A stretch of 36,694 nt of DNA from Deinococcales bacterium (GCA_043778225.1 JAYWGM010000024.1:1-36694); one strand, 5' to 3'; shown: positions 115 to 36,539, counted from the first letter of the stretch. The notes: a model not told the origin generated them from the sequence alone. Translations and numbers: made by a program.

Positions 115-399
115 TTAGGAAACTGGCAATAAAGCTCGAGCTTCAACAATTGGCATCCAGTTTTCGCCCATTCTGGCATCTATTGCCTCGAGTTCGGCTT
201 GGGGGATGGATTTCCAATGCTGTAGACTTTCCCAGCGAATCATCGTGACAACATGATTGGTTTCTTGGTCTACAAATGTTTCTTTGCTGATAAACCCGGG
301 GTACTGACTGAGTGCGGCAGTCCAAATGCTTGCATCTGCCTCGAGAAAAGCAGCGCGTTTTTCTTGGCTGACTTCAAAGCGTAAAAATTCAATCACCAT
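115..399 (-). CDS. Antibiotic-biosynthesis-monooxygenase-like (ABM/dimeric alpha-beta barrel) protein, TIGR03792-like
   Basis: 94 aa: MVIEFLRFEV...FLEADASIWTAALSQYPGF...IRWESLQHWKSIP. TACACT lies 7 nt before the ATG (leaderless). Confidence 0.75.
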   Translation of the reverse strand: MVIEFLRFEVSQEKRAAFLEADASIWTAALSQYPGFISKETFVDQETNHVVTMIRWESLQHWKSIPQAELEAIDARMGENWMPIVEARALLPVS

Positions 400-467
400 A
401 AGCGTCAGTGTACAATGGTTGCCAAGCCAATAGCCGTGACTCGAGCAACAAATCAGTTGGGCTTTTT

Positions 468-481
468 TTGTGTAATTGTAC
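468..481 (+). promoter_or_regulatory. Candidate operator TTGTGTAATTGTAC, shared with 29164-29178
   Basis: A near-identical motif lies upstream of both NitT/TauT ABC operons. Confidence 0.45.
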
Positions 482-563
482 GACTCTAAAAAGACAATTC
501 TCTTAAAATGTGGTTTTTTGATACATTTGTCTTGCTGTATTTAAGCAAATGTAAGTTTTTAGC

Positions 564-593
564 TTGACAGTTTGCAATCTAACCCGTTATATT
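564..593 (+). promoter_or_regulatory. Sigma70-type promoter of the ABC/catabolic operon
   Basis: TTGACA (564-569), 18-nt spacer, TATATT (588-593). RBS AGGAAGG precedes the ATG at 633. Confidence 0.6.
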
Positions 594-632
594 TCGTCAA
601 ATTTCAGGTTCTTCGCCACCAAAAGGAAGGTC

Positions 633-1448
633 ATGACTGCAATTATCAGCCCCTCGAGTACAAAAACACTGGTTCGGGTGCATGGCGTGGACAAAACACT
701 GGTTCGGGTTCATGGTGTGGATAAACAGTACGCCAATGGCACAATTGCAATAGAAAGTGTCAGTCTCGAGGTTAAAGAAAACGAATTTGTGTCTTTGGTT
801 GGACCGTCGGGCTGTGGTAAAAGCACCTTGTTGCGAATTATCGCAGGGCTTGGCGATGCCACGGCTGGCGAAGTCAGCGTTGATGGGCGGCAACCGGGCG
901 ACTTGCAAGCCCGAGGGCAATCGAGTTTTGTTTTCCAAGAAGCCACACTTTTGCCATGGCGCACAGTACGGCAAAATGTCGAACTGCCGCTCGAGTTAAT
1001 GCGTGTTCCCAAAGCCAATTGGGATAGTGTGGTTTCTGAAGCGCTCGAAATGGTTGGTTTACAGGACTTCAAAACCGCTTTTCCTCGAGAACTCAGTGGT
1101 GGTATGAAGATGCGCGTTTCAATTGCTCGAGCCTTGGTCACGAAACCGCGTTTGCTCTTAATGGATGAACCTTTTGGCGCACTTGACGAAATCACGCGGC
1201 AAAAACTCAACGACGACCTGATGCGTGTCCGCGAACTGACCAAAGCGACGATTATTTTTGTGACCCACAATGTTTTTGAAGCTGTATTTCTCTCGAGCCG
1301 AATTGTGGTGATGAGCGTTCGTCCGGGCAGAATCTTGGATGAATTTGCAATCAATACACCCTATCCACGCAGCAGTGATTACCGAGGTACACCAGAGTTT
1401 GCCCAAGGCGTAAATTCGGTGATGAAACTCTTGGCACACACCCATTAG
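633..1448 (+). CDS. ABC transporter ATP-binding protein, NitT/TauT family
   Basis: Walker A GPSGCGKS, signature LSGGMKMR, Walker B LLLMDEPF, VTH switch. Start moved to the ATG at 633 after the RBS. Confidence 0.95.
   Translation: MTAIISPSSTKTLVRVHGVDKTLVRVHGVDKQYANGTIAIESVSLEVKENEFVSLVGPSGCGKSTLLRIIAGLGDATAGEVSVDGRQPGDLQARGQSSFVFQEATLLPWRTVRQNVELPLELMRVPKANWDSVVSEALEMVGLQDFKTAFPRELSGGMKMRVSIARALVTKPRLLLMDEPFGALDEITRQKLNDDLMRVRELTKATIIFVTHNVFEAVFLSSRIVVMSVRPGRILDEFAINTPYPRSSDYRGTPEFAQGVNSVMKLLAHTH
663..722 (+). repeat. In-frame 30-bp tandem duplication (KTLVRVHGVD x2)
   Basis: aaaacactggttcgggtgcatggcgtggac / aaaacactggttcgggttcatggtgtggat; the three differences are all synonymous. Confidence 0.95.
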
Positions 1449-1482
1449 CCCACTGCAATCTGGCTTCTCGAGGAGATAAACC

Positions 1483-2316
1483 ATGACTGATTCTAAACCG
1501 CTTACCCAAGCTCAACGCCCAGCCCAAATCCCAGCTTGGCTCGAGCGGATTTTCCCACCGGCGGTTTCATTTGTTTTTTTTGTGGCAATTTGGCAGAGCG
1601 TGATTACCATCGCTAATCTCAAACCCTACATTTTGCCCAGTCCACTTCGCGTGGTTGGTGCTTTTATTGAACACCGCGAGAGCTTGCTGACTTCGGCGTG
1701 GTTTACTTTTCAGGCTTCGTTTGTGGCATTTTTGGTGGTCATGGTGCTTGGTACTGCCCTGTCTTTTTTGCTCTCGAGCAGCAAATTTATCGAAAAAGCC
1801 CTGTATCCCTATGCGGTCATGCTGCAAAGTACCCCAGTGATTGCGATTGCGCCAATTATTATTATTTGGTTTGATATTGGATTTGCCAGTATTGTGACCA
1901 TCAGTGTGATTATTGCAATTTTCGCCGTGGTTGCCAACACCACCCAAGGTTTAATCAGTGTCGAAAATAATTTGCAGAATCTCTTCAAACTTTATGGTGC
2001 TTCCAAGCCACAAACCTTATTCAAATTACGCCTCCCGTTTGCCTTGCCGTATATGGTCACAGGCTGGCGAATTGCGGCGGCACAAGTGGTGATTGGTACA
2101 ATCGTTGGTGAGTACATGGCTGGGGCTGGCGGCGGTGGCATGGGCGGACTGGGAATCATTATTGCCGAAACCAGCGCAAGACTACAAACTGGTTATTTAT
2201 TTGCTTCGGCGCTTAGTGCGGCTTTACTTGGCATTGCATTTTTTTTAATGGTCAATTTTTTTGGGCATTTGCTCTTAAAAAACTGGCACGAATCGGCTGT
2301 ACAACATGAAAACTAG
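1483..2316 (+). CDS. ABC transporter permease, NitT/TauT family
   Basis: ILPSP motif, QSTPVIAIAP, EAA-like loop LFKLYGASKPQTLFKLRLP, multiple TM segments, RBS GAGGAG. Confidence 0.93.
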   Translation: MTDSKPLTQAQRPAQIPAWLERIFPPAVSFVFFVAIWQSVITIANLKPYILPSPLRVVGAFIEHRESLLTSAWFTFQASFVAFLVVMVLGTALSFLLSSSKFIEKALYPYAVMLQSTPVIAIAPIIIIWFDIGFASIVTISVIIAIFAVVANTTQGLISVENNLQNLFKLYGASKPQTLFKLRLPFALPYMVTGWRIAAAQVVIGTIVGEYMAGAGGGGMGGLGIIIAETSARLQTGYLFASALSAALLGIAFFLMVNFFGHLLLKNWHESAVQHEN

Positions 2317-2370
2317 GGTGAAAAGGCAAAAAGGAAGAAAAAAACCTTTGACCCTTTGACCTTTTAACCT
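2314..2370. repeat. Imperfect hairpin built from 8-nt units (CYTTKRAC-like)
   Basis: Left arm TAGGGTGAAAAGGCAAAAAGG; right arm cctttgac-cctttgac-cttttaac. A related arm is at 35225-35261. Confidence 0.65.
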
Positions 2371-2388
2371 GATGTTTTGGAGGAAAAT

Positions 2389-3360
2389 ATGAAGAAATTG
2401 GGTTTGGTATTGCTTGGTGCGGGTCTGACAATTGGTGTGGCTTCCTTGGTTTCGGCACAAAAAATGCCCGAAGTCAGCATCATCTTGAATTGGTTTGCTG
2501 AACCACCACATGGCGGCTATTATGCAGCCGTACAGGACGGCTTGTACGAAGCCAAAGGCGTAAAAGTTAAACTGATTCCTGGTGGACCTAATGTGGCGGG
2601 GTATCAGTTGGTAGCGACTGGCAAAGCTGCGTTTGCTCAGATGGACACTGGCGGGATTTTGCAGTCTCGAGAAGAAGGGCTGCCAGTGGTTGGTGTCTTT
2701 GCCGATTTGCAACTTTCGCCACAAGTGCTGATGTACCACAAGGAAAATCCAATTAAAGGCTTTGCTGACCTGGCTGGGCGACAAGTGGCGGTCACACCCG
2801 GCGCACCGTACTGGGATTATATTGTTGCCAAGTACAAACTGGCAGGTAAAGTCCAACAAGTCAATTACTCGGGTCAAGTTGCCACTTTTTTGAACAACAA
2901 AAAACTGGTCAGCCAAGGCTACGCGGTTGCCGAGCCGTACACGATTAAAGAAGCTGGCGGCGATATTGATTACCTCTTGGTCTCCGATTCTGGTTTTAGC
3001 CCTTACGGTGTCTTAGGCACAACCGAAGAATACATCCAGAAAAACCGCAAAACGGTGCAAGCTGTGGTCGAAGCCAGCCAAGAAGGTTGGAATCGCTATG
3101 TCGCCAACCCAGCCAAGTACGGGGCAGCCTTGACTGCCGATAACAAAGACCTCAACCCAGCCTTTCTCGACTGGAGCGGTAAAGCTGTGGTTCCATTTGC
3201 GACTGGCAAAGATGGACAAGTTAAGAAATTTGGTTTTGGCACAATGCAACTCAGCCGTTGGAACGAAGTCTACAAGGCACTTAAAAACGTTGGAATCCTC
3301 AAAAGAGACCAAGATGTGAAAAAAGCCTTTAATACCACATTCATTCCAAAACCAAAGTAA
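2389..3360 (+). CDS. ABC substrate-binding protein, NMT1/THI5-like
   Basis: Signal peptide MKKLG...VSA; LNWFAEPPHGGYYAAVQDGLY and GGP motifs of the NMT1/THI5 family; RBS GGAGG. Confidence 0.9.
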   Translation: MKKLGLVLLGAGLTIGVASLVSAQKMPEVSIILNWFAEPPHGGYYAAVQDGLYEAKGVKVKLIPGGPNVAGYQLVATGKAAFAQMDTGGILQSREEGLPVVGVFADLQLSPQVLMYHKENPIKGFADLAGRQVAVTPGAPYWDYIVAKYKLAGKVQQVNYSGQVATFLNNKKLVSQGYAVAEPYTIKEAGGDIDYLLVSDSGFSPYGVLGTTEEYIQKNRKTVQAVVEASQEGWNRYVANPAKYGAALTADNKDLNPAFLDWSGKAVVPFATGKDGQVKKFGFGTMQLSRWNEVYKALKNVGILKRDQDVKKAFNTTFIPKPK

Positions 3361-3376
3361 ACTCGAGTTTCAAACA

Positions 3377-3408
3377 AACAGGGACGAAAGAATCACTTCG
3401 TCCCTGTT
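3377..3408 (+). terminator. Intra-operon stem-loop after the binding-protein gene (stabiliser or partial terminator)
   Basis: Perfect 12-bp stem AACAGGGACGAA / TTCGTCCCTGTT, 8-nt loop, weak U tract. Confidence 0.7.
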
Positions 3409-3453
3409 ATTATCAGCCATAATAAATCAAAGCAACTAACTCGAGGATACAAC

Positions 3454-3912
3454 GTGGATTTAATTACCTTAAAGCAAGGCATTATTTTATTTTGGGCGGT
3501 TTGGTTATCTTTGGTTTTGCTGCTCAACTTTTTGGATGTTGCAAAAAACCTAAAAATCCTGCCCGAGTCATGGAAATTTAACAGTGGTAACTTTCCATTT
3601 ATGCAGATGGTGGTTAAAGTTTACAGTACCCCTAATCCACTGACTTGGATGATGTACATCTCGGCGATTATCTGGGAAATTGTGGCGGTCTATTTACTTT
3701 GGGCAGCCCTTGGCAGTTTTGACCCGAATAATTTGCGGCTGGTTAATTTGGCATTTATGGTCAATCTGGCACTTTGGGCAGCTTTTGTGGTGATGGATGA
3801 GATTTTCTTGGCATTTTTAGTTCCTGGATTTAATATTATGGAAACCCACCGCAGTTTATTTACCGCCAATTTGGTCAGTTTAATGGCGATTCATTTGTTG
3901 CCAAACACCTAA
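3454..3912 (+). CDS. Hypothetical integral membrane protein (about 4 TM)
   Basis: 152 aa, hydrophobic segments, GTG start after GAGG, co-oriented within the operon. Confidence 0.7.
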   Translation: MDLITLKQGIILFWAVWLSLVLLLNFLDVAKNLKILPESWKFNSGNFPFMQMVVKVYSTPNPLTWMMYISAIIWEIVAVYLLWAALGSFDPNNLRLVNLAFMVNLALWAAFVVMDEIFLAFLVPGFNIMETHRSLFTANLVSLMAIHLLPNT

Positions 3913-3947
3913 ACTCGAGAATATAAAAACAAAAAGGGGATGTTGTG

Positions 3948-4721
3948 ATGGACTCGAGGTATTTACCCAATTTAAGTTGGACAACCATTCGTGACTTGGA
4001 TAAAACCGATGGCGTGGTGGTGTTGCCGATTGGCGCAATCGAGCAGCACGGCGCACATTTGCCAGTTGCTACCGATGCGCTGTTGGCAGAACGAATGACG
4101 ATTCTGGCATTCGAGAAACTGCCTCCCGATGCCAAAGTCTGGCGTTTGCCAGTCCAGAGTTACGGTAAATCCAACGAGCATCTTGGCTATGCTGGCACAA
4201 TTTCGCTCCGCGCCGAAACCCTGATGATGGTGCTGCACGACATTGGCTCGAGTGTGGCAGCTTCGGGCTTTCGGCGCTTGTGTTTTGTCAATGCCCACGG
4301 CGGGAATAGTGCGCTTTTGGCGATGATGGCTCGAGAAATTCGTATTGCAACTGGCTTGATGGTTTTTAATACGTTTACCAATGCAGGAGCGCCCGACCCA
4401 ATCCAAATCCCAGCCGTTGAAGCCAAATATGGCATCCATGCCAACGACTGGGAAACCAGTTTGCTGCTGCATCTCGAGCCAGATTTGGTGGACATGACCA
4501 AAGCCATGCGCCACTACCCAGACATTGCCGATGGGGCAGTTGGCTTGACGGGGGGCGCGGCGGTGGCTTCGTGGCTGACTCGAGATTGGAGCGTCAACGG
4601 CGTTTTTGGCGACCCAACCTTGGCAACCCCAGAACGCGGCGCGGTGCGGCTCGAGGCAGCCACCACTGCGCTGGCTCAGGTTCTTGTTGAAATCAGTTAT
4701 TTTGGAGTGCCACATGAATAA
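3948..4721 (+). CDS. Creatininase-family amidohydrolase (creatininase/ArfB/MftE fold)
   Basis: LPIGAIEQHGAHLPVATD, S-x-EH, NAHGGN, HANDWETS, G-V-F-GDP motifs. Confidence 0.92.
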   Translation: MDSRYLPNLSWTTIRDLDKTDGVVVLPIGAIEQHGAHLPVATDALLAERMTILAFEKLPPDAKVWRLPVQSYGKSNEHLGYAGTISLRAETLMMVLHDIGSSVAASGFRRLCFVNAHGGNSALLAMMAREIRIATGLMVFNTFTNAGAPDPIQIPAVEAKYGIHANDWETSLLLHLEPDLVDMTKAMRHYPDIADGAVGLTGGAAVASWLTRDWSVNGVFGDPTLATPERGAVRLEAATTALAQVLVEISYFGVPHE

Positions 4722-6953: not shown

Positions 6954-6954
6954 C

Positions 6955-7011
6955 CAGGGCGACTCAGCCCGTCAGGTGAATCTTTTGAGTCAAGACAGCT
7001 TGCCTGCCCTG
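6955..7011. repeat. REP-like hairpin interrupted by a 36-bp element (6961-6996)
   Basis: Removing 6961-6996 restores CAGGGCAG-CTTGC-CTGCCCTG. The insert matches 35173-35208 at 29/36 positions. Confidence 0.75.
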
Positions 7012-7031
7012 CCCAAAATCCCGAGGTCATT

Positions 7032-9505: not shown

Positions 9506-9523
9506 GGATGTTAGGCTAGAACC

Positions 9524-11652: not shown

Positions 11653-12609
11653 TTATGGCAGGTTGACCATAAATGCTCGAGTTGCTGTGCCGCGTTTGGC
11701 TTTTATCTCGAGACTCGAGCCACTTTTGGCAGCTAAAATTACGGCATTGACCTCAGCGATGCTCTCGACGGGTAGCCCAGCAATCTCAAGGATGTTATCG
11801 CCAGCTTGTAACCCAGCCGCATCTGCTAGACCCCCTGGCAAAATGGTTTGCAGTACCGCACTTTGGTCTTGGCTCGAGACTCCAAGGCTTGGCAAATCCA
11901 CGGTTTCGCCGCGCAAAAGAGTTTCGACTGCCACCCGTACCAAGCGGGTTGGAATCGCAAAGCCAACCCCAGCACTCGAGCCAGTTGGTGATAGAATACT
12001 CGAGACCACACCCAGCACCGCACCATCTTTATTCAGCAGCGCTCCGCCACTGTTGCCCGGATTGACCTGAGCATCAAATTGTACCAGCCCAGCCAAAGCG
12101 CCTTTGGGTGTGACCTGTAAACGCTCCAAACCAGAGATAACCCCAACCGTCAGGCTGCGCGGCGCTCGAGCAAACGGATTGCCAAGTGCTAATGCCAGCG
12201 AGCCGACTTCGGGGGTTGCTGTTGCCCACTCGAGCTTAATTGGTATATTTTCGCCGCGCAGTACCGCCAAATCAAGCTGGTCTACTTTGCCAATCAATTT
12301 GGCTTCTTTGATGCCCTCGAGGTGCTGAACGGTTCTGGGGCGGTTGTCTAAATAAATTTTTGTGCCGCCATCCACGACATGGGCTGCCGTGATGTACACA
12401 CCGTCGCCAATATGAAATGCCGAGCCAGCGCCACGCATTTCGGGGTCGGTTAAATTGGCAATGTTAGTGCGTACTGAAACGACCGCCCCAAGGGTACGTT
12501 TGACCACCGACTCGAGGCTTTCTGGATTGGTAGAAGTTGTTCTCGAGCCAAATAAAAACCCTGCCAGTGCCGCAAAAATAACCGCCACCAACCACGGCAG
12601 CCATTTCAT
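11653..12609 (-). CDS. HtrA/DegP-like S1C serine protease with one PDZ domain
   Basis: Catalytic triad contexts ITAAHVV, DLAVL, NPGNSGG; N-terminal membrane anchor; PDZ segment AGLQAGDNIL. Confidence 0.92.
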   Translation of the reverse strand: MKWLPWLVAVIFAALAGFLFGSRTTSTNPESLESVVKRTLGAVVSVRTNIANLTDPEMRGAGSAFHIGDGVYITAAHVVDGGTKIYLDNRPRTVQHLEGIKEAKLIGKVDQLDLAVLRGENIPIKLEWATATPEVGSLALALGNPFARAPRSLTVGVISGLERLQVTPKGALAGLVQFDAQVNPGNSGGALLNKDGAVLGVVSSILSPTGSSAGVGFAIPTRLVRVAVETLLRGETVDLPSLGVSSQDQSAVLQTILPGGLADAAGLQAGDNILEIAGLPVESIAEVNAVILAAKSGSSLEIKAKRGTATRAFMVNLP

Positions 12610-18468: not shown

Positions 18469-18552
18469 GTAGGGGCGAACCCCCGTGTTCGCCCTGCGTT
18501 TGCATATGCCAAAAGCCTTGGCGTGTAAGGGCGAGGCAAGCCCCGCCCCTAC
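18469..18552. repeat. Inverted REP doublet (REPIN-like)
   Basis: GTAGGGGCGAAC-CCCCGT-GTTCGCCCT (18469-18495) and, on the minus strand, GTAGGGGCGGGGCTTGCCTCGCCCT (18528-18552). Confidence 0.8.
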
Positions 18553-18555
18553 GGT

Positions 18556-19974
18556 TTACAACATTTGCCGAACGTCTACGACTTGCCCAGAAATCGCGGC
18601 GGCGGCTGCCATGATGGGTGACATCAACAGGCTTCTCGAGCCGGGTCCTTGGCGACCTTGGAAATTGCGGTTGGATGTGCTTGCGACGTATTTACCACTG
18701 CCAGCTTTGTCTTCGTTCATGGCAAGGCACATACTGCATCCCGCGCCGCGCCATTCAAAACCCGCGTCCTTAAAAATCGTGTCCAGCCCTTCGGCTTCGG
18801 CTTTGGCTCGGACATCTTTGCTGCCGGGAACAACAATGGCAATGACATGGCTCGAGACTTTTTTGCCTTTTAGTATTTTTGCGGCTTCGCGTAAATCCTC
18901 GAGTCTGCCATTGGTGCAACTGCCAATAAACACTTGGTCTACGGGTAAACCTTCGATTGCCTGCCCTTCTTTGAGTCCCATGTACTCGAGGGCGCTCTCG
19001 AGGGCGCGGCGGTCAGCGGCATTCTCGAGGTCAGATGCTCTTGGGATGGTTTGGCGAATCCCAGCACCTTGTCCTGGGTTCGTGCCGTATGTCACCATTG
19101 GCTCGAGTTTAGAAGCATCTATAAAAATCTCGCGGTCAAATGTTGCATCAGGGTCGGATGGAAGGGTGTTCCAGTATGCCACAGCATTATCCCAAGCCTC
19201 GCCAGTTGGAGCATATGGACGACCCTTTATAAAGTCATAGGTTGTTTGGTCAGGGGCAATCATGCCCGCCCTCGCGCCCGCTTCGATGCTCATGTTGCAA
19301 ATGGTCATGCGGTTCGCCATGCTTAAAGCTCGGATGGTACTGCCGCGATACTCGAGAACATAGCCTGTACCACCAGCCGCTCCAATCTGCGCGATAATCG
19401 CCAGAATAATATCCTTGGCAGTTACACCCACACCAAGTTCACCATCCACGTTAATCGCAAAGGTTTTCGCAGGATTTTGCAACAAGGTTTGGGTTGCCAG
19501 CACATGACCGACCTCGGACGTACCAATACCGAACGCCAACGCACCGAATGCACCGTGGGTACTGGTGTGTGAATCACCACAAACAATTGTCATGCCGGGA
19601 TGGGTAATCCCCATTTCAGGACCCACCACATGAACCACGCCTTGTACTTCGCCAGAAATATCCCAGAGGGTCACACCAAAATCCGCGCAGTTCTTACGCA
19701 GGGTTTGCACTTGCGTGGCTTGTTCAGAACCCCACATCTCGAGCGGAATGACCTCCTGAGCGTTCTGCATCAGCGTCGGAATACTATGATCCATGGTCGC
19801 AAAAGTACGCTGCGGATTGCGAACCGTTAAGCCCTTCTCGCGCAGCATTCCAAACGCCTGCGGACTGGTGACTTCATGAATCAAGTGCGTGTCTATGTAC
19901 AACACCGTTGGCGCACCTGCGTCTTGCGCCACAACGTGCGCGTTCCAAACTTTCTCGAATAATGTTTTACCCAT
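18556..19974 (-). CDS. leuC: 3-isopropylmalate dehydratase large subunit
   Basis: [54 protein letters not shown]. Confidence 0.96.
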
Positions 19975-19993
19975 GATGGACTCCTTGAACGAT

Positions 19994-20983
19994 TTAACTG
20001 ATGAGGTTTGATGCTTCAAAAGTAACGACGATTTTATCTCCACTTTGTATTTCTAATTCCAAAACTTGAGTTTCTAAGTCTTCAGAAAGATTAACCTCGT
20101 TGATTGATTTACTAAATCCCCAAGGCAGTTTTCTTTCAACTTTATAGCTCGAGACTCCAAAAAGTTTGATTGTTTGACTTGTTAATTTGATTTCTAGAAT
20201 CCCTTTTTTCCAATCAAAGTTAATACTTTCAATGGTCTTATCGTGAAGTTGCTGCGTGTTAATTTTTAGCCGATTTGAAATTTGACTGGCATACATTTCT
20301 GCTGACTCAAGTGAACCGAGTATGTCCAATTTCTCTAGAGCAAATGTAGAGATTTGACTCGGATTCACCTTCTCTATAATTATCGCTCGAGGACATATTT
20401 TCTCTTCGAGATACGCATTGATACGATGATGTCCATCAATCAAAAAGTAACAATTGAACCCATCTTCATTTGGTGATTTCGCTAGAATAATAGCTGGTCG
20501 TTCCCCTGCTTGAATTTTCTTTCGCCACTTATTGACACGACCTGAATCAACGTTACTTTCAGGCAATGTCTTAACGATAAAATCAGAGTTTGGATAACAT
20601 TCCCAGAAATATGTTCCACTTATCACTTCTACGTTTGCTACCCAAAACTCAGAATCTAACTCAAATTCTCGAATTGATACTTCATACAGTCCATCAGCAA
20701 AAAGATTCACAATGGGTTGAACCGTATTTTCTAGGTTATCTGCATTAACGTGAACTTCGCTAATTGAATGGAAGTGATTTCCAATAGAACGAAACCTATT
20801 GTCTGGCGAATTAACAAACCATTGAATAATACTTCCACTAAATTGATTCCAAACTGTTGTGACTAAATTTCCATGAAACACCAATGCGCCACTAAAATCC
20901 GCCTGACCTTGTATATCAAGAATTCCTAAGCCGTTTTCGACGACAAAGTTTCTCGAGACTTCAATTGGATTTCTGGTATTCAT
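19994..20983 (-). CDS. Hypothetical protein with a ParB/Srx-like motif (LIDGHHR), AT-rich
   Basis: GERPAIIL...[13 protein letters not shown], plus an apparently separate C-terminal ~85-aa domain. Confidence 0.6.
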
Positions 20984-20986
20984 AGT

Positions 20987-21316
20987 TCAATCCACAATGA
21001 ATAATTTTGCGCCTATCTCGGTTCTCGAGCGGTGCGCTTCGGCGTTGTCCGCCACTTGATAACTCATACCGGGTTTCAACATAAATACTTGCCCATCTTT
21101 GAGTTCGGTCTCGAGTTCACCCTCTAAGCACAAGAGAATATGTCCTTTGACGCACCAATGGTCAGACACATACCCAGCCGTGTATTCCACCCTGCGAACC
21201 CGAATGCCAGCAAAATTCTGGGTGCGCCAAAAGGCTTTACCAGTAATGCCAGCGTGTTCGGTTGGTTCTATGTGCGCCCAGTCGGTTGTACCGAATGGAA
21301 TTTGGGTCATGTTCAT
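20987..21316 (-). CDS. DHCW-motif cupin-fold protein
   Basis: IPFGTTDW, RVEYTAGYVSDHWCVKGH, GMSYQVAD, GAKLFIVD. Confidence 0.9.
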   Translation of the reverse strand: MNMTQIPFGTTDWAHIEPTEHAGITGKAFWRTQNFAGIRVRRVEYTAGYVSDHWCVKGHILLCLEGELETELKDGQVFMLKPGMSYQVADNAEAHRSRTEIGAKLFIVD

Positions 21317-21336
21317 AGGTCTTCCTTTTAGGGAGT

Positions 21337-22356
21337 TCATCGCTTGAAAATAGGTAATTGGTTTGGGTGTTGATATAGTCGCAAGCCATCATTGACCCCT
21401 AAAGCAAGACTAACTGAGTCTTGAGATAGCGCAAACGACTCATGACCAAAAATATTTGTTTTAAGTTGGTACAGTATTTTTCCTGTAACCAAGTCCCAAA
21501 ATATGATGTTATCACCATAGGCACTGCTTACAATTGTTTTTCCATCTGGTGTAAATCGGGCTTCCCAAACATTTGATTTATGCCCCAAAAACGTAGCAAG
21601 TTCCCTTCCTGTTTGTAAATCAATCCATAGAATGCTCGTTTTATAGGGGAATATGACACTTTTCCCATCAGGATGTATTGCAATATTGCGACCATCAGCT
21701 TGTCGTAGTTTTCTAATCAATTTACCAGAGTTAAAATCAATTAAGAATGTGGAATTATCTAGGGAAGTTACCATAATCTGGCGATTGTCTTGAGAGAAGT
21801 CAATTGCATTAAGATATTGAGCTTCAAGGGTAAATGTTTTATCGAGACTGCCAGTTCTTACATTATATGAGCGAACGTTGTAATCTGCATACGTCGCAAC
21901 TATTTTTTCTTCATCATTAGAAAATTTGATTGCCTGTATTGTTGTGGGCAAATTCTCTAAATTCTTTTCTATTCGAGGATAAGAGCGTGTTCTAAAGACT
22001 TCTTTGAACGTTTCTGTGCGAAAAACATAGAGTATTGTACCTTCTGAAAGGGCAAAAAAACTTCCATTTTTACTAAATTCAACTGCTGAAGATGAACTGT
22101 TTTCTAATAGAAAATCGAAAACTTTTTTACCGAATATTAAATCAAAAATGCTTAAACTTTGACTTTTATCTCCACCAAATTTAGTTCTAGCTATCAATGA
22201 TTTATTGTGATTTATAGCAATTGACGAGGTATAGCCTCCATGATATTTTTGCCACATTATTCTTAGGTCAGCAAAACTATGCTGTGTCTGGGCTGTTATT
22301 ACCTGTGATAGAAGAATAAAAACAAATACTAATCTATAAGTGTTCTGCCGATTCAT
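21337..22356 (-). CDS. WD40-repeat beta-propeller protein, probably exported
   Basis: Repeated FS-x-DG/N blades and FLGH...FTPDGK...IIFWD; hydrophobic N terminus; AT-rich. Confidence 0.85.
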   Translation of the reverse strand: MNRQNTYRLVFVFILLSQVITAQTQHSFADLRIMWQKYHGGYTSSIAINHNKSLIARTKFGGDKSQSLSIFDLIFGKKVFDFLLENSSSSAVEFSKNGSFFALSEGTILYVFRTETFKEVFRTRSYPRIEKNLENLPTTIQAIKFSNDEEKIVATYADYNVRSYNVRTGSLDKTFTLEAQYLNAIDFSQDNRQIMVTSLDNSTFLIDFNSGKLIRKLRQADGRNIAIHPDGKSVIFPYKTSILWIDLQTGRELATFLGHKSNVWEARFTPDGKTIVSSAYGDNIIFWDLVTGKILYQLKTNIFGHESFALSQDSVSLALGVNDGLRLYQHPNQLPIFKR

Positions 22357-23033
22357 ATTTTCACCTTTTTGACTTTTGGTGTATATATCTTGTTGAAAAC
22401 TGAAGTGAATCTATCGCATCGGCTTGAGCGTAACCACCGCATTACATCAGGATTCATCCACTCGAGTAACCGAATCATATCTTCGTAACGACTCCAAAGC
22501 TCACTTGGTTTTTTGTTAATAGGCTCGTGGTGTGCAATTCGGTTACGAAGTTGTCTTATCTTTGTCAAGTCGTCTCGAATCTTCTGAATATTTCTATTGT
22601 TTGGTGTTGTTGCTGGAAATAATAGATTGTTATATGGTCGCCAGAATTCGACCTCATAATTTTTACTAAATAAAGATGTCCAAAATCCAAACATGAGTTC
22701 TGCAACAACAGAGCCAGAATATATGGATTTCTTAGAGGCAGCTAGCTTTTCAACTGCCTTGAATACATCACCGCGTCCTTGTCGGTCAAGTAAGTAAAGC
22801 AATTTACTATCACGAAACCAGTCCTGACCGTACTTCTTGATGAGTACCAGTTCAAATTGATTTCTGAGAACAATTTCTAATTGCTGCATCAAAGGATATA
22901 GCGCTTCACACAATTGAATATTTTCACCGTATTTTTTTAAGGTTCTTGCTCGTGTTTGATTCAAATTACGATAAGAAGATAGGCGAGCAGATGAAATACC
23001 TTTTTCGATCTTAATGTAACTAACTCTTGGCAT
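22353..23033 (-). CDS. Abi-like (Abi_2/AbiF-type) HEPN ribonuclease
   Basis: S-ARLSSY, LEIVLRN, FGFW and the intact HEPN R-x4-H motif LRNRIAHHE. Confidence 0.88.
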   Translation of the reverse strand: MPRVSYIKIEKGISSARLSSYRNLNQTRARTLKKYGENIQLCEALYPLMQQLEIVLRNQFELVLIKKYGQDWFRDSKLLYLLDRQGRGDVFKAVEKLAASKKSIYSGSVVAELMFGFWTSLFSKNYEVEFWRPYNNLLFPATTPNNRNIQKIRDDLTKIRQLRNRIAHHEPINKKPSELWSRYEDMIRLLEWMNPDVMRWLRSSRCDRFTSVFNKIYTPKVKKVKI

Positions 23034-27128: not shown

Positions 27129-27561
27129 TGCCTTGCCTGTCATCCTCGATACCAATACAATCAGCGAACTCCAACGCACAAAACCAGAGGCTCGAGTCAA
27201 AGCATGGTTTGATTTGCAAGTACCCAGTCAATCGTTTATCTCAAGTTTTACCATCGCAGAGATTGAAACAGGTATTTTTCAGTTACGTGATGCAAAAAAA
27301 GCTGAAGACCTACGTTTATGGCTCGAGACTTTTATTTTGCCGACTTTTCATAATCGAATTTTGCCTTTTGATACTGCCGCCGCTAGAATTTATGGACGTT
27401 GGGCAGGGGAGAACCGCAAAAAAGGAACTCCTTTAACGGTGACAGATACGCAAATAGCAGCGATTGCGTATGTGCATGGCTTGGTGGTAGCAACCCGAAA
27501 CACTCCTGATTTTGCATCGTTACCTGTGCGTTTGGTTAATCCGTGGGAATTTATAAAGTAG
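27121..27561 (+). CDS. vapC: VapC/PIN-domain toxin
   Basis: ILDTNTISE, TIAEI, D-QIAAIA, ATRN..DF, NPW. Confidence 0.92.
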   Translation: MTDALPVILDTNTISELQRTKPEARVKAWFDLQVPSQSFISSFTIAEIETGIFQLRDAKKAEDLRLWLETFILPTFHNRILPFDTAAARIYGRWAGENRKKGTPLTVTDTQIAAIAYVHGLVVATRNTPDFASLPVRLVNPWEFIK

Positions 27562-27587
27562 CGTGTGGCTCGAGAAAGGAGGTAATT

Positions 27588-29107: not shown

Positions 29108-29117
29108 TTTTTAACTT

Positions 29118-29154: not shown

Positions 29155-29163
29155 GGCAATGGA

Positions 29164-29238
29164 TTGTGTAAATTGTACTACTAAAAATGTACATCAAGAC
29201 AAGTTTAATTTGACACTTTGACTAAAATACCGTATCTT
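29164..29238 (+). promoter_or_regulatory. Candidate operator plus sigma70 promoter of the second ABC operon
   Basis: TTGTGTAAATTGTAC (29164-29178); TTGACA (29210-29215), 17-nt spacer, TATCTT (29233-29238). Confidence 0.6.
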
Positions 29239-29303
29239 CTTGCATTCGTACTGTTCTAACGATGTCAGTACGCACTCGACTTACCTCGAGTACAAGGGGT
29301 GTT

Positions 29304-30323: not shown

Positions 30324-30336
30324 ATTTTACGCAGTG

Positions 30337-30362
30337 GGCGGACTTTTTTGTCCGCCTTTTTT
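30337..30362 (+). terminator. Terminator-like hairpin between binding-protein and ATPase genes
   Basis: GGCGGAC / GTCCGCC stem followed by TTTTTT. Confidence 0.7.
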
Positions 30363-30377
30363 GATGAGGTTTCAAGC

Positions 30378-31909: not shown

Positions 31910-31921
31910 TACAGTAAACGC

Positions 31922-32359
31922 ATGACTGCTGAACTCCTGAAACTTTTTAAGCGCGACCTCGAGAAACTGATAACTGAAATCGAAGCGTACCCGTCCGAAG
32001 AAAGCATCTGGCTTGTAACTGGCGAAATCAAGAATTCTGCTGGAAACTTAGTGCTGCATTTAATCGGCAACTTAAATCATTTTATTGGCACAAAACTGGG
32101 CAATACGGATTTTGTGCGTGACCGCGATGCTGAATTTGCAGTGCGCGACGTGCCTCGAGCCGAGTTAATAGGAAAACTGCACGATACCATGGCGGTTCTC
32201 GAGACTACCCTGCCGACTTTGGACACAGCTGCCCTCGAGGCAACATTTCCACTCGAGGTGCTGGGCTACCCAATGACCACAGGCTACTTTTTGATTCATT
32301 TGTACGGACACCTGAGTTATCATCTTGGGCAAGTCAATTACCATCGGCGTTTGGTTTAG
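31922..32359 (+). CDS. DinB-superfamily protein (DUF1572-like)
   Basis: NSAGNL-LHL-GNL, RDRDAEF, HLSYHLGQ. TACAGT 6 nt before the ATG. Confidence 0.85.
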   Translation: MTAELLKLFKRDLEKLITEIEAYPSEESIWLVTGEIKNSAGNLVLHLIGNLNHFIGTKLGNTDFVRDRDAEFAVRDVPRAELIGKLHDTMAVLETTLPTLDTAALEATFPLEVLGYPMTTGYFLIHLYGHLSYHLGQVNYHRRLV

Positions 32360-32577
32360 TAATGCTCGAGTTTTGACAGCACATCTCGAGCTTCGCTTGG
32401 GTCGGTGATGGCGAGTTTAGAACCGCCCTCAAAGTAGAGTACCAAACTGACATTGCTTGCCGAGGCTTGGGCTGGCGCATTGCGCCCAACACCCGCGCCT
32501 AGACTGCCAGAGACTTCGTAATACTGAATACTCTCGAGATTCACGCCACGATGACCGACTCTTAAAAATTTTGCCAT
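32356..32577 (-). CDS. Small hypothetical protein
   Basis: 73 aa filling the gap between neighbours; TAGAAT 6 nt before the ATG. Confidence 0.65.
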   Translation of the reverse strand: MAKFLRVGHRGVNLESIQYYEVSGSLGAGVGRNAPAQASASNVSLVLYFEGGSKLAITDPSEARDVLSKLEHY

Positions 32578-32607
32578 GCGCTTATTCTATCACTGGATGC
32601 TGTGTTT

Positions 32608-33153
32608 CTACACCCACCACTCGAGCGAATGCCCCATGATTGGGGCGGCTTCGTCTGGATGCAGCACTCGAGAAAGGGTGTACAGATTGTCTCGAGGTTT
32701 TTGATGAACCTCGAGCGTGTTGTTGTGCAGATTGTAAATCCAATACTCGGGAATTGCATTTCTGGCATATGCCTCGAGTTTGTCGGTTTGGTCACGGTGC
32801 AAGGTTTTGTCTGAAATTTCAATCACAAGGAGGGTATCGGCAGACGTGGCATTTTCACTGGCGTACCGACTGCGAGGTGGAATTCGTAATGCAATGTCTG
32901 GTTCAACAAAATCAGGTGGAGGCGAAAGCAATATGCAAGGAAGTTGAACGGCAACAGTGGCTTTTTTTCCGAGTAATTCCTTGAGTATTTCATCCAAAGT
33001 CTGAACTGCATACGCATGGCGTGGGCTTTGCATTCCTTTCACAGTAATTTCTCCATTTAGTAATTCTACGTGTTGGTCTGCAAACATTTCTAAATCTGAT
33101 ATCTGTTCAAATTCGGTAAACGAAAATTTTCGTGGTTTATCCGCCGATGACAA
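32608..33153 (-). CDS. Uma2-family PD-(D/E)xK nuclease-like protein (start approximate)
   Basis: VELLNGEI, SPRH, EPD, LLVIEISD, K..AYA...IPEYWI. Confidence 0.85.
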   Translation of the reverse strand: MSSADKPRKFSFTEFEQISDLEMFADQHVELLNGEITVKGMQSPRHAYAVQTLDEILKELLGKKATVAVQLPCILLSPPPDFVEPDIALRIPPRSRYASENATSADTLLVIEISDKTLHRDQTDKLEAYARNAIPEYWIYNLHNNTLEVHQKPRDNLYTLSRVLHPDEAAPIMGHSLEWWV

Positions 33154-33300
33154 GCTAAGTGCTTGTTGTCTTATGATTAAATCACTCGTCAAATTTTGCT
33201 CGAGAACCTGAGTCACGTATTTAGTGTATATTATTCTGCGCGATTTTTGTTGAATCGCTAAAATTTTAGATTTGTGGTCTCGAGCCACACGGAGGTTGTC

Positions 33301-35157
33301 ATGAAGCACGAATTCCAAACCGAAGTCAGTCAATTGCTGCATTTAATCATTCATTCGTTATACAGCCATAAAGAAATTTTTTTGCGCGAGCTTGTGTCCA
33401 ACGCCTCGGATGCACTTGATAAGTTTAAGTACGCCACGATTACCGATGAGCGCTTTAAGGAGGCTACTTGGTCGCCGCGCATAGACGTTCGTTTTACCGA
33501 AGGCTCGGTTCGATTGCTCGAGATTGAGGACAATGGCATTGGGATGTCCGAAAGCGACTTAATCGAAAACCTCGGCACGATTGCCAAAAGCGGCACAAAG
33601 AATTTTATGGCGCAACTCAGCGGCGATGCCAAAAAAGACTCGAATTTAATTGGACAGTTTGGTGTGGGTTTTTACAGTGTTTTTATGGTTGCCAGCAGTG
33701 TCGAAGTGGTCAGTCGTAAAGCTGGTGAGGAAATCGCCAGCAAATGGACATCCGATGGTCAGGGTGGTTATGAACTCGAGGCAGTACAAAAAGAAAACCA
33801 AGGAACACTGATTCGCTTATTCCTCAACGATGAAGGCACAGAATACGCCAACCGTTGGCAACTCGAGCAACTGATTAAAAAATACAGCAATCACATTGCT
33901 TTTCCGATCTTCCTGCATTTTGAAAAAACCGAGTATGGCAAGGACGGCGCGGAAAACACCGTCACAGCCGCCGTTGAGCAAGTCAATAGCGCCAATGCGA
34001 TCTGGTCTCGAGCCAAGTCGGATTTAAGTAAGGAAGATTACACCGAGTTCTATAAATCGGTCTCGCATGGCATGGACGAACCACTGTTCTGGTCGCACGT
34101 CAAAGCCGAAGGAATGTTGCAGTACACCAGTTTATTGTACATCCCCAAAACCGCGCCGTTTGATTTGTACCACGCCAATTTCCAACCGGGTGTAAAGCTC
34201 TATGTGCGCCGTGTTTTTATCACCGATGACGATAAAGAACTGCTGCCGACATGGTTGCGTTTTGTGCGCGGCGTGATTGACTCCGAGGACTTGCCACTCA
34301 ATGTTTCTCGAGAAATTCTGCAACAAAATAAAGTCATGAAAAACATCCGTACTGCCACAGTCAAAAAGTTGTTGTCTGAATTCTCGAGAATTAAGAACGA
34401 AGAACCCGAGACATGGGACACCTTTATTGCTGCCTTTAACCGACCATTAAAAGAAGGGCTGTACCAAGACCATGAAAACCGCGATGCCCTAGCAGAATTG
34501 GTGCGCTACAACTCGAGTCAAGAAACTGGCTTAACTGGTTTTGCCGAGTACATGTCCCGAATGCAGCCCGAACAAAAAGCCATTTATTACATCACTGGCG
34601 GTACAGAAGGCGTACTTCGCAACAGCCCGTTGCTCGAGGCGTACAACAAAAAAGGCATCGAAGTCTTAATTGCCTCGGATGAAATAGATGAAATTGTGAT
34701 TTCTGGCTATCCAAAATACAAAGAATACGACCTCAAAGCCGTCAACCGCTTAGAGACTGGCGAAGACCTAAAAACCGAAACCGACGAAGTTGCCGCCAAA
34801 GAAGCCGAACCGACGATCGAACGGGTTAAAAAAGCCCTAGGACTTGAAGTGAAGGATGTCAAAGCCTCGAGCCGCTTGCTCGAGAGTCCAGCTTGTGTTG
34901 TGACTGACGACACCGACCCAACTTTCCAAATGCAAGCCATGTTTCGTAGCATGGGGCGTGAATCGGAAATGCCAGCCATTAAACCAATCCTCGAGTTAAA
35001 CCCAAATCATCCGCTTATTATTGGGCTAAAAGATGCAACGGACAGTGTGGTGGATGATACAGCCCATGTCTTATTGGCGCAATCATTACTGCTCGAGGGA
35101 GCAGAAATTCCAGACCGAGTGGATTTTGTAAAGCGTTTGAACCGATTATTGGGTTAA
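33301..35157 (+). CDS. htpG: Molecular chaperone HtpG (Hsp90)
   Basis: FQTEV, LYSHKEIFLRELVSNASDA, DNGIGM, LGTIAKSGT, IGQFGVGFYS, DSEDLPLNVSRE; RBS GGAGG. Confidence 0.97.
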   Translation: MKHEFQTEVSQLLHLIIHSLYSHKEIFLRELVSNASDALDKFKYATITDERFKEATWSPRIDVRFTEGSVRLLEIEDNGIGMSESDLIENLGTIAKSGTKNFMAQLSGDAKKDSNLIGQFGVGFYSVFMVASSVEVVSRKAGEEIASKWTSDGQGGYELEAVQKENQGTLIRLFLNDEGTEYANRWQLEQLIKKYSNHIAFPIFLHFEKTEYGKDGAENTVTAAVEQVNSANAIWSRAKSDLSKEDYTEFYKSVSHGMDEPLFWSHVKAEGMLQYTSLLYIPKTAPFDLYHANFQPGVKLYVRRVFITDDDKELLPTWLRFVRGVIDSEDLPLNVSREILQQNKVMKNIRTATVKKLLSEFSRIKNEEPETWDTFIAAFNRPLKEGLYQDHENRDALAELVRYNSSQETGLTGFAEYMSRMQPEQKAIYYITGGTEGVLRNSPLLEAYNKKGIEVLIASDEIDEIVISGYPKYKEYDLKAVNRLETGEDLKTETDEVAAKEAEPTIERVKKALGLEVKDVKASSRLLESPACVVTDDTDPTFQMQAMFRSMGRESEMPAIKPILELNPNHPLIIGLKDATDSVVDDTAHVLLAQSLLLEGAEIPDRVDFVKRLNRLLG

Positions 35158-35161
35158 AACT

Positions 35162-35208
35162 GTAGGGCGAATGACTCAGCCCGATAGGTGCAACTTCAGG
35201 GTCAAGAC
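35162..35208 (+). repeat. REP-like 5' half (GTAGGGCGAAT) followed by the second copy of the 36-bp element
   Basis: GACTCAGCCCGATAGGTGCAACTTCAGGGTCAAGAC at 35173-35208. Confidence 0.75.
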
Positions 35209-35224
35209 GTTAGGTAAAACCTTA

Positions 35225-35261
35225 ACTTTTGACCCTTTAACCTTTTGACCTTTTCACCCTA
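35225..35261. repeat. 8-nt tandem repeat arm related to 2314-2370
   Basis: cttttgac-cctttaac-cttttgac-cttttcac. CCTTTTCACCCTA (35249-35261) is the exact reverse complement of 2314-2326. Confidence 0.7.
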
Positions 35262-35271
35262 TGCTCTACCC

Positions 35272-36432
35272 ATGTCAAACTTTGATAGCCTCGAGCCAAG
35301 CCGACTGCGTGACCCATACTCGATTAAATGGAATTTGTATCCCGAAGGTGTGCTGCCGCTTTGGGTAGCCGATATGGATTTCCCAATGAGCCAAAGCATT
35401 AAAAAAGCGATTGTGGCACGACTCGAGTATAATGTTGGGTATCCGCACATGGCTGGCGACCCGCGCTTACTTGAGGCGATTATTCACCAACAAGCGGGCT
35501 ATGGTCTCACTGGACTCGAAGCCAAGCACCTGATGTTGGTCTCGAGTGTTGTACCGGGCTTATATGCCAGTATTCAGGGCTTAACCGAAATTGGCGATGA
35601 GGTCATAACCCAAACCCCAATTTACCCACCGTTTTTAACCAGTGTCCGTGACCATGGGCGGATTGCCCTCGAGAATCCAATGATTTGCCGCGAATCTGGC
35701 TGGGAAATTGATTTTGACCACCTCGAGACACTGGTCAGTCCAAAAACCAAAGTCTTGATGCTGTGTAACCCACACAATCCAACTGGACGGGTTTTTGTCC
35801 GTTCCGAACTCGAGCGATTGGCTGCTTTTGTGTTGCGCCACGATTTATTGGTGATTACCGACGAACTTCATTCGATGCTGCGGCTCGAGGGTGAACACCT
35901 TGCTTTTGCCAGCCTTAGCCCAGAAATGGCAGCCCGCACCGTGACGCTGACCGGACCATGCAAAGCCTTCAATACCGCCGGATTAGGTGGTGGTGTGATT
36001 ATTGCCCAAAATACAGAATTGCTCGAGCGCATCAAAAAAGCCACCAAAGGCTTATTGGGACACCCCAATGTGCTTGGTATGGAAATGTGGCGGGTCGGAC
36101 TCGAGGAAAGCACGGCTTGGCTCGAGGAAACCCTGACGTACCTCCGTGCCAACCGCGATTTTTTAAGCACTTGGCTCGAGCAACACTTGCCTGAAGTGGA
36201 TTGTATCCCAGCCCAAGGCACCTATTTGGCATGGATGAATTTTAATAAATTCCCATTTGCCCAAGATATTTTTAAGATTTTACTCGAGGAAGCCAAGGTG
36301 GGCTTAAACGATGGACCACCATATGGGCAGGGCTATTCGGGTTGGGTACGGATTAACTTTGCGACCTCTCGAGCCATTCTGACCCAAGCCCTAACGCGCA
36401 TTGAGACTTGTATTCGCGCTCGGGTGGATTGA
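35272..36432 (+). CDS. MalY/PatB-family PLP enzyme (cystathionine beta-lyase-like)
   Basis: S-KW, LPLWVADMDF, PIYPPF, LCNPHNPTG, DELH, K-FN-AGL, TYLAW, RINFAT. TATGCT 6 nt before the ATG. Confidence 0.92.
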   Translation: MSNFDSLEPSRLRDPYSIKWNLYPEGVLPLWVADMDFPMSQSIKKAIVARLEYNVGYPHMAGDPRLLEAIIHQQAGYGLTGLEAKHLMLVSSVVPGLYASIQGLTEIGDEVITQTPIYPPFLTSVRDHGRIALENPMICRESGWEIDFDHLETLVSPKTKVLMLCNPHNPTGRVFVRSELERLAAFVLRHDLLVITDELHSMLRLEGEHLAFASLSPEMAARTVTLTGPCKAFNTAGLGGGVIIAQNTELLERIKKATKGLLGHPNVLGMEMWRVGLEESTAWLEETLTYLRANRDFLSTWLEQHLPEVDCIPAQGTYLAWMNFNKFPFAQDIFKILLEEAKVGLNDGPPYGQGYSGWVRINFATSRAILTQALTRIETCIRARVD

Positions 36433-36539
36433 TAGATAGGAAGCTACCAATAAAGATTTCAACACCACTCAATTTTTTGTGAACCTTTCTCGAGTGATTT
36501 GCTCCCATATCACCATTGTACAAAAACCAGTATCTCGAG

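Follow-up and report, generated by a model that had tools for sequence, protein, structure and literature searches.

The stretch of Deinococcales DNA analysed here (36,694 nt; JAYWGM010000024.1 of assembly GCA_043778225.1; hereafter the window) carries, among other genes, those for the large subunit of an aconitase-family dehydratase, a Uma2/DUF820 putative nuclease and the HtpG protein, and is occupied along practically its whole length by copies of the palindrome CTCGAG, the subject of this report. Exact counting gave 262 copies (7.1 per kb) against 8.2 expected from zero-order composition, a 32-fold enrichment, and 100 dinucleotide-preserving shuffles of the window averaged 4.99 copies and never exceeded 9, corresponding to a 52-fold excess. 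A preliminary description of the window, which had put the number at about 260 and the excess at about 30-fold, was borne out by these counts, as was its statement that the word is used in all three reading frames (Table 1; the division into frames and intergenic sites rests on our own open reading frame (ORF) calls). Ten of the 11 sites which it had placed between genes are intergenic, whereas the one at 27569 falls within a called ORF with a GTG start at 27543.

Table 1. CTCGAG sites and other features of the window, with positions counted from its first nucleotide.
Feature	Position	Strand	Remarks
CTCGAG array	135..36539		262 sites: 147 in frame CTC-GAG, 42 in nCT-CGA-G, 48 in nnC-TCG-AGn, 3 in ORF overlaps, 22 intergenic or at gene boundaries
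Intergenic CTCGAG	440..445		also at 1467, 3362, 3440, 13559, 13584, 23900, 26823, 29119, 29140
Doublet CTCGAG-A-CTCGAG	11707..11719		sites 7 nt apart; 1 of 123 doublets in the genome
Large-subunit gene, aconitase-family dehydratase (LeuC-like by our reading)	18556..20043	-	9 CTCGAG; used for site dating
Motif-poor low-GC stretch	19994..23033		6 sites (1.97 per kb; remainder of the window 7.61 per kb); GC 0.37
Uma2/DUF820 putative nuclease gene	32608-33342	-	
HtpG gene	33274-35157		

The window is contig C24 of a genome assembly (G000) of 4.03 Mb in 107 contigs, with 48.7% GC and an estimated completeness of 89%, in which a 16S rRNA gene was not found. This assembly holds 24,877 copies of CTCGAG in total, that is 6.2 per kb or about one per 160 bp and 26.7-fold above the zero-order expectation, and the word is dense in each of the 88 contigs longer than 10 kb (4.0–7.6 per kb), so that the excess is not confined to one contig. 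No other hexamer comes near it: the next most enriched ones are its own five-of-six overlaps, followed at 4.9-fold by CAAAAA as the next independent hexamer. As the flanking bases are only weakly biased genome-wide (at position −1, G 0.31 and C 0.18), the unit is the 6-mer CTCGAG itself, in agreement with what had been proposed from its variable flanks in the window. The maximal-order Markov ratio of observed to expected counts (O/E) amounts to just 1.16 in G000, a value which is uninformative because 89% of the CTCGA pentamers already sit in CTCGAG. Among words differing from it at one position, the transition neighbours CTTGAG, TTCGAG and CCCGAG are the commonest, and the reversed word GAGCTC occurs in 24 copies. 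Other 6-bp palindromes are extremely avoided in this genome, about 35 of them having an O/E below 0.1 (for example GGCGCC with 3 copies and GGGCCC, AGGCCT and GACGTC with 1 copy each).

Each of the 18 further genomes in the GTDB family of G000 contains 4.3–6.8 CTCGAG per kb, which together with G000 makes 19 genomes in five genera, and 12 genomes from four sister families of the same order contain 0.03–2.9 per kb. CTCGAG is hence highly iterated as a palindrome in one family of uncultured Deinococcales, at about 5–7 copies per kb; full-text searching of the literature, with subscription journals outside its coverage, found no report of its hyper-abundance. That the host is not a cyanobacterium, as previously stated, was upheld by the nearest relatives of the HtpG protein of the window, which belong to Deinococcales or Deinococcota metagenome-assembled genomes (MAGs; 79–93% identity). 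When parts of the window were aligned with five congeners at 71–80% nucleotide identity, CTCGAG was retained at 47–70% of the sites (27/42, 43/67, 56/94, 72/103 and 21/45), compared with 14–33% for control hexamers in the same alignments; given an equilibrium occupancy of about 70% of the permissible Leu-Glu positions, and at saturated divergence, such values could stem from continual re-creation of sites as much as from their persistence. For the LeuC-like gene, a codon alignment was built from 13 family orthologues (four genera) and 17 sister-family orthologues. The family genes have 5–11 CTCGAG each and the sister genes 0–3, despite a GC content at third codon positions (GC3) of 0.80–0.97 in the latter. 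Seven of the 23 site columns are common to 8–12 of 12–13 family genomes, and at six of these seven the sister families encode other residues: LE of the family stands against LA/QA, IA/IP, YP/VP or LS/IS of the sisters, [IV]SS against VAP/VAA, and GSR against TGR/QGR. Since the sisters differ at the shared columns, these sites arose through the exchange of amino acids close to the family's base and have persisted ever since; judged from this alignment, many CTCGAG sites go back to about the common ancestor of the family.

In G000, where an ORF-scoring script of our own called 3574 genes with 89% of the sequence coding, coding DNA contains 6.19 CTCGAG per kb and non-coding DNA 6.02. In the 64.8 kb made up of intergenic spacers of 1–100 nt there are 383 copies, and spacers whose GC content ranges from 0.38 to 0.475 all carry 5.5–6.5 sites per kb, the O/E falling from 55 to 25 along this range. 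When synonymous codons were shuffled within genes, the three frames retained 1699, 393 and 315 sites, as against 13,260, 4443 and 4534 observed, which corresponds to an excess of 7.8-, 11.3- and 14.4-fold; the enrichment thus survives both the codon shuffle and the restriction to intergenic DNA, under which the preliminary description had considered that it might vanish. CTC accounts for 88% of the Leu codons ahead of GAG and for 8% elsewhere, CGA and TCG show the same dependence on context in the other two frames, and Leu-Glu is the most over-represented dipeptide (O/E 2.30), with Glu-Leu at 0.96. The force that maintains CTCGAG acts on the DNA word and not on codons, peptides or RNA; codon choice gives way to it, and amino acids have been exchanged under it. 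Did the word merely follow from base composition, from codon usage or from a preference for certain dipeptides, it might be expected where CTC and GAG are both likely favoured, as in the high-GC sister families, and this would indeed explain their counts of up to 2.9 per kb at GC3 0.80–0.97. Such a by-product accounts neither for the 8- to 14-fold excess over the synonymous shuffle in all frames and the equal non-coding density, nor for the rarity of CTC among Leu codons unless GAG follows, the scarcity of the reversed word and the low site numbers of the sister LeuC-like genes. This explanation is refuted, and we give it practically no weight.

The gaps between CTCGAG sites are near exponential overall (coefficient of variation (CV) 0.998; index of dispersion 1.00 in 1-kb windows), with gaps of 6–10 nt and of 11–20 nt occurring at 0.32 and 0.54 of the geometric expectation, respectively. 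Occupancy was then determined at 33,529 positions where the encoded peptide permits CTCGAG synonymously, as a function of the distance to the nearest other site, a restriction by which protein constraints are removed. In the CTC-GAG frame the occupancy climbed from 6–12 nt to 101–250 nt through 0.32, 0.51, 0.63, 0.68, 0.73, 0.76 and 0.78, and the other two frames showed a like trend. With the frames pooled and a null obtained by permuting occupancy within gene and frame 20 times, the observed value was 0.294 at 6–12 nt (null 0.563 ± 0.012), 0.436 at 13–20 nt (null 0.582), 0.579 at 21–30 nt (null 0.618) and 0.730 at 101–150 nt (null 0.655). The pair correlation was 0.39 at 6–17 nt and 0.80–0.95 out to 65 nt, and from there to 1.5 kb it remained level at about 1.03, a range over which no periodicity of pair distances was found in the 107-contig assembly. 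Neighbouring CTCGAG sites interfere below about 30–65 bp. The repulsion is real, because local heterogeneity would give the opposite trend, and it fits either the footprint of a reader or diminishing returns per DNA stretch. One exception to the shortage of close pairs is the doublet CTCGAG-N-CTCGAG, of which there are 123 against 30–53 pairs at 8–11 nt; 100 of the 123 are coding, and among the others, which are non-coding, some sit on top of GC-rich stems with T-runs behind them and look like terminators built on the word.

The preliminary description had likened CTCGAG to HIP1 (GCGATCGC), the hyper-abundant palindrome of cyanobacteria, and had proposed a link to methyltransferases recognizing CTCGAG or TCGA. 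The comparison with HIP1 holds, CTCGAG being a short palindrome that is enriched 27-fold in all frames and in spacers, conserved and lineage-wide, whereas the methylation link is not supported by the gene content of the family, whose assemblies are 57–94% complete and in which the specificity of a methyltransferase is not readable from the sequence. The XhoI-family endonuclease PF04555 was found in none of the 19 family genomes, while the same profile matched, as a positive control, in 6 of the order's 151 genomes (5 of the 23 from the sister family f4; f2 has a single copy, which is broken). In f4 the PF04555 gene adjoins that of a PF01555 methyltransferase of 340 aa, which has an SPPY motif and is 79% identical between two species; this enzyme has no orthologue in the 19 family genomes, the best match reaching 64 bits at 43% identity over residues 230–315. 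C5 methyltransferases (PF00145) are present in 17 of the 19 genomes, the exceptions being G002 and the 91% complete G010, and number just one in the single-contig genome G013, Eco57I/TaqI-like enzymes (PF07669) in 17, with none in G013, N4/N6 enzymes (PF01555) in 16, with none in G013, G014 and G002, and D12 enzymes (PF02086) in 18, where they fall into at least seven orthologue groups, the largest of which covers seven genomes and does not include G000. No orthologue group of these four families spans the 19 genomes. Among five genomes searched, G002 has no PF02384 and G006 a weak match to it; the repair endonuclease Vsr was found in none of five genomes, the single-contig G013 among them, and RecC likewise in none of five, and the RecB/AddAB-type nuclease domain (PDDEXK_1) is sporadic, with no match in G000 or G010. 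G000 itself has some 20 methyltransferase genes (five C5, about six Eco57I-like, three HsdM, three to four N4/N6 and three D12). Judged by their patchy distribution, the methyltransferases of the family look like the shifting restriction-modification (R-M) repertoire of a palindrome-avoiding lineage. No gene responsible for the array was recognized among those of the window, as had also been anticipated.

Two further candidates were tried and rejected. Uma2/DUF820 nucleases, with 3–34 or more per family genome and at least 34 matches in G000, do not track the word, as CTCGAG-poor sister genera have equal numbers (g6 32–34, g21 29, g9 7–20), and one sister family has none. At C89:22856-24828 of G000 (L081:599-2571), a 277-aa ORF without Pfam match overlaps the start of the gene for a 380-aa D12 adenine methyltransferase, 1.3 kb from dprA; an opposite-strand glyoxalase gene lies between, and we take this probably to be an ordinary two-gene R-M unit. 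Such an islet would probably include an endonuclease not described before; a search of the PDB by sequence gave no relative.

Evidence on the DNA encountered by these bacteria came from their clustered regularly interspaced short palindromic repeats (CRISPR). G000 has one array (C80:16-2691) of 44 repeats of 29 nt, and 10 of its 43 spacers contain CTCGAG, which is 8.45 per kb of spacer positions; 7.3 sites would be expected at the host rate and 0.27 by chance. None of these spacers matched elsewhere in the G000 assembly. Nine arrays adjoining cas1 in seven relatives provided 88 further spacers (one array was parsed imperfectly, its 15 repeats giving just 8 spacers), 16 of them with CTCGAG (5.95 per kb). 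In the pooled 131 spacers, 26 sites were found in 3875 positions, that is 6.7 per kb against about 1.2 sites by chance (Poisson P ~4e-26), and the DNA sampled by the CRISPR systems of the family thus carries CTCGAG at host density. The word also lies inside the repeat itself in seven of the nine relatives' arrays (L216, L218, L220-L224); searches for the G000 repeat in metagenome contigs and in the other 18 genomes of the family gave no match. A spacer of the congener G003 matches the G000 chromosome at 30 of 31 nt (C72:55233-55263), within a cystatin-domain gene (L225:9155-9625) that is surrounded by genes for PrmA, a solute-binding protein, a MoxR ATPase and a sigma factor and does not belong to a prophage. 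With its target amid housekeeping genes, this spacer indicates that at least some spacers sample the chromosomal DNA of relatives, and the CRISPR system is aimed here either at a relative's chromosome or at an element bearing the cystatin-domain gene.

As for mobile DNA and viruses, the insertion sequence (IS)-like repeats of G000 (11.6 kb in total) carry 7.4 CTCGAG per kb. Scanning viral contigs for three clustered copies of the word gave at least 128 loci, and density was computed on 80 of them; the densest 20 all have a high GC content (0.64–0.73), at which CTC-GAG is expected in any case. With A/T flanks required, the scan yielded 19 loci, and not one of these combined a GC content of about 48% with 5 or more CTCGAG per kb. 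Several single contigs were strongly enriched in the word, namely the IMG/VR contigs L153 (GC 0.67, 6.7 CTCGAG per kb, O/E 20), L304 (GC 0.34, O/E 17.5) and L112, and the giant-virus contig L298 (GC 0.23, O/E 23.5).

The constant density of CTCGAG, the interference between its copies and the failure to find a conserved methyltransferase, Vsr or XhoI-type enzyme in the genomes searched together point to a requirement per DNA stretch and not to a chemical bias acting site by site. The host-like density in spacers, the one target in a congener's chromosome and the conserved uptake machinery make a transformation-linked signal the most likely mechanism, and we favour, with a probability of roughly 0.4, the reading that CTCGAG is a self or kin signal linked to transformation and kept up by molecular drive. 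The word would be read during natural transformation, either in DNA binding and uptake or in processing before recombination, so that DNA richer in CTCGAG would be taken up or recombined more often, and alleles creating a site would spread while those destroying one would be lost. A drive of this sort has been put forward for the uptake words of Neisseria and Haemophilus and, of late, for HIP1 as well. The preliminary description had named a DNA-binding or uptake protein as its other option, and it is this option that is favoured here. A second site within the footprint of the reader would add little, which would produce both the short-range interference and a density independent of composition. 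As far as gene content goes, such a mechanism would require no methylation step, and methylation would remain compatible with it. ComEC is encoded in 18 of the 19 family genomes, and G000 has a full ComEC together with ComEA, DprA and three PilT/PilB-type ATPases; a 190-aa ORF upstream of comEC was considered as ComEA and rejected as a small membrane protein. With regard to HIP1, this word has been reported to make transformation more efficient in a way that depends on methylation (Kamoku and Nielsen 2024, bioRxiv 10.1101/2024.09.10.611283) and to correlate with competence and pilus genes and not with methyltransferases (Rodriguez-Cruz et al. 2026, PMC13756078).

Several observations weigh against a transformation-linked signal. 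No sequence-specific reader was found in the genomes searched, the ComEA of G000 having an ordinary architecture of SLBB and helix-hairpin-helix (HhH) domains, and HhH domains are not known to have a sequence preference in binding DNA. The competence genes are also common in relatives that do not have the word, and are therefore necessary and not discriminating. Known uptake sequences are 9–12 nt long, non-palindromic and present at about one per kb, so that no uptake sequence of the known kinds would match a 6-mer this dense (6 per kb), which would form a kind of its own; Thermus and Deinococcus are not known to prefer particular sequences in DNA uptake. If the effect of HIP1 on transformation is taken as a guide, it would call for methylation, and no conserved methyltransferase was found in the CTCGAG family. 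No protospacer was found for five G000 spacers searched as exact matches in viral contigs, or for one searched in metagenome contigs, and 130 of the 131 spacers are untraced; if they derive from lytic phages, an uptake bias cannot explain their content of the word, and a repair bias or mimicry of the self mark would fit better. The viral scans described above revealed no viral contig with the signature of the CTCGAG family. Interference below about 30 nt could equally reflect the cost of a hairpin between two self-complementary copies.

A more specific form of the transformation-linked reading, in which CTCGAG is a kin-recognition word read directly and without methylation by the transformation or recombination machinery, and hence a new, very dense palindromic type of uptake sequence outside the Proteobacteria, is in our view a tentative proposition and somewhat doubtful. 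If it were true, hyper-abundant palindromes, HIP1 included, and DNA uptake sequences would come down to the same thing, marks of self that molecular drive writes across whole genomes, and the interference length of about 30–65 bp would measure the footprint of the reader.

Other mechanisms have to be set against a transformation-linked signal, and the one that we regard as unlikely to a lesser degree than the rest is an array for an abundant, family-specific dimeric DNA-binding protein, serving nucleoid organization or marking self DNA against a nuclease or defence system that attacks word-poor DNA, with selection keeping about one site per 100–200 bp. A palindrome suits a dimer, the density per length is constant whatever the coding status or GC content, and the short-range interference is consistent with a footprint; if the word is a self-mark, mobile DNA would gain by mimicking it, which fits the motif-rich spacers, and the dense IS-like repeats agree with this as well. 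Selection and a role in nucleoid structure have, moreover, been argued for HIP1 (Xu et al. 2018, PMC5861425). No candidate protein was found, however, placement beyond 65 bp is random as judged by dispersion, gap CV and absence of periodicity, the Uma2 nucleases of the family are as numerous in CTCGAG-poor sister genera, and some 25,000 singly selected sites would demand that very small effects be visible to selection. Biased repair linked to methylation, by which CTCGAG or TCGA would be marked and mismatch repair would convert near-sites to the word, appears less probable still. This was the main inference of the preliminary description and is reportedly Elhai's model for HIP1. It can draw on the wealth of methyltransferases in G000, on specificities not being readable from sequence, so that one and the same specificity could be shared by different enzymes in different genomes, and on the transition neighbours being the commonest near-words, as decay with restoration predicts, although plain decay fits them too. 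The gene inventory speaks against it in several respects, with the XhoI-type endonuclease and its partner methyltransferase missing from the 19 genomes, no C5 enzyme in G010 and G002, only one C5 and neither Eco57I-like nor N4/N6 enzymes in G013, D12 enzymes split into groups of which the largest has seven genomes and leaves out G000, and no Vsr in the five genomes searched. Furthermore, a drive at one position cannot lift a 6-mer 27-fold, and a repair bias acting site by site predicts neither a composition-independent density nor interference up to 20–30 nt. In favour of such a model, HIP1 has been tied to orphan methyltransferases that recognize its inner sequences (Elhai 2015, PMC4390886).

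Least likely of these mechanisms, and to our mind very improbable, is a Chi-like signal, a word that modulates a helicase-nuclease or stimulates homologous recombination and break repair, and does so in both orientations by virtue of being a palindrome. A lineage related to Deinococcus may rely heavily on break repair, and motif-rich invaders would profit from such a signal too, as does phage lambda from Chi. Known Chi sites are, by contrast, asymmetric, far rarer and skewed with respect to replication, and one site per 160 bp is far above any such need. RecC was not found in the five genomes searched, and the sporadic RecB/AddAB-type nuclease domain is missing from G000 and G010. A Chi-like component has been suggested for HIP1 (Kamoku and Nielsen, bioRxiv 10.1101/2024.09.10.611283).

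In relation to known systems, CTCGAG resembles HIP1 in being a short, GC-rich, over-represented palindrome that occurs in genes and between them, is conserved between genomes, lineage-wide and scarce in imported DNA, and for which transformation is now suspected. It differs in being another word of 6 instead of 8 nt from the phylum Deinococcota instead of cyanobacteria, and in having no conserved cognate methyltransferase among the enzymes found. Short-range site interference is not known to have been described for HIP1. HIP1 is reported to be over-represented 15- to 300-fold (CTCGAG 27-fold), to occur at 'more than one per gene' (CTCGAG, being denser, at one per 160 bp) and to be distributed with a periodicity of 10–90 kb (PMC5861425), and a HIP1-related word lies in a cyanobacterial CRISPR repeat (PMC6604393), like CTCGAG in the relatives' arrays noted above. 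A term search of Elhai 2015 (PMC4390886) found neither 'CTCGAG' nor 'Deinococcus'.

The DNA uptake sequences (DUS) of Neisseriaceae and the uptake signal sequences (USS) of Pasteurellaceae offer a second parallel, as they too are family-wide words in genes and spacers, associated with competence genes and with distortion of the encoded peptides; their upkeep is ascribed to molecular drive, with a bias in uptake followed by recombination. In Neisseria, CRISPR spacers match the chromosomal DNA of relatives, of which one case is known here in the CTCGAG family. In contrast to the 6-nt palindrome at 6.2 per kb, DUS and USS are 9–12 nt long, asymmetric and present at about 1 per kb, a specific receptor, ComP, exists in Neisseria and none was found for CTCGAG in the family genomes, and uptake bias has been demonstrated for DUS and USS, while for CTCGAG it is a hypothesis. 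XhoI and PaeR7I recognize the same six bases, and PF04555 systems exist in the same order (6 of 151 genomes), yet neither their endonuclease nor their methyltransferase has an orthologue in the 19 family genomes, and R-M targets are normally avoided, as dozens of palindromes are in G000, whereas CTCGAG is enriched 27-fold. Very-short-patch repair of the Dcm/Vsr type differs likewise, given that Vsr is missing from the five genomes searched and that G010 and G002 have no C5 methyltransferase.

HIP1 has been without an explanation for about three decades, its study being limited to one phylum, and CTCGAG provides an independent second case with another word, in another phylum and at a higher density. 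What the two have in common would be general: a force acting at the level of DNA, sites that are conserved, proteins that are rewritten, few copies in imported DNA and copies within CRISPR repeats. The dedicated methyltransferases, in contrast, may be a peculiarity of cyanobacteria. Any mechanism now has to reproduce two new quantitative observations, namely the interference at short range and the host-like density in spacers. In practical terms, CTCGAG flags native as opposed to imported DNA in genomes of this family, and it biases codon- or k-mer-based analyses of them.

Such a contrast between native and imported DNA is probably seen within the window in the motif-poor low-GC stretch 19994..23033 (Table 1), which encodes two proteins without Pfam match, a WD40 protein and a weakly matching HEPN/Abi-like protein, and which is probably imported DNA, a defence islet not yet overwritten with CTCGAG. 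It is of like kind to the 19 site-free stretches longer than 1.5 kb in G000, which have GC contents of 0.31–0.47 (14 of them below 0.42). Only the assembled contigs of two sequencing runs, both from one study, contained the window; the main contigs are identical and gave no usable polymorphism, and the listed differences to the window trace to short contigs of other organisms or to paralogues. At 18469-18556 and 6957-7010 lie short, GC-rich, partly self-complementary intergenic elements of about 30–40 nt, dozens of copies of which, at 85–100% identity, occur in five of five same-genus genomes searched; they are free of CTCGAG and look like repetitive extragenic palindromic (REP) elements. The closest relatives of HtpG outside the family are found in Campylobacterota and Treponema (50–54% identity) and not in other Deinococcales, and on the basis of this distribution htpG may have been gained horizontally by the ancestor of the CTCGAG family.

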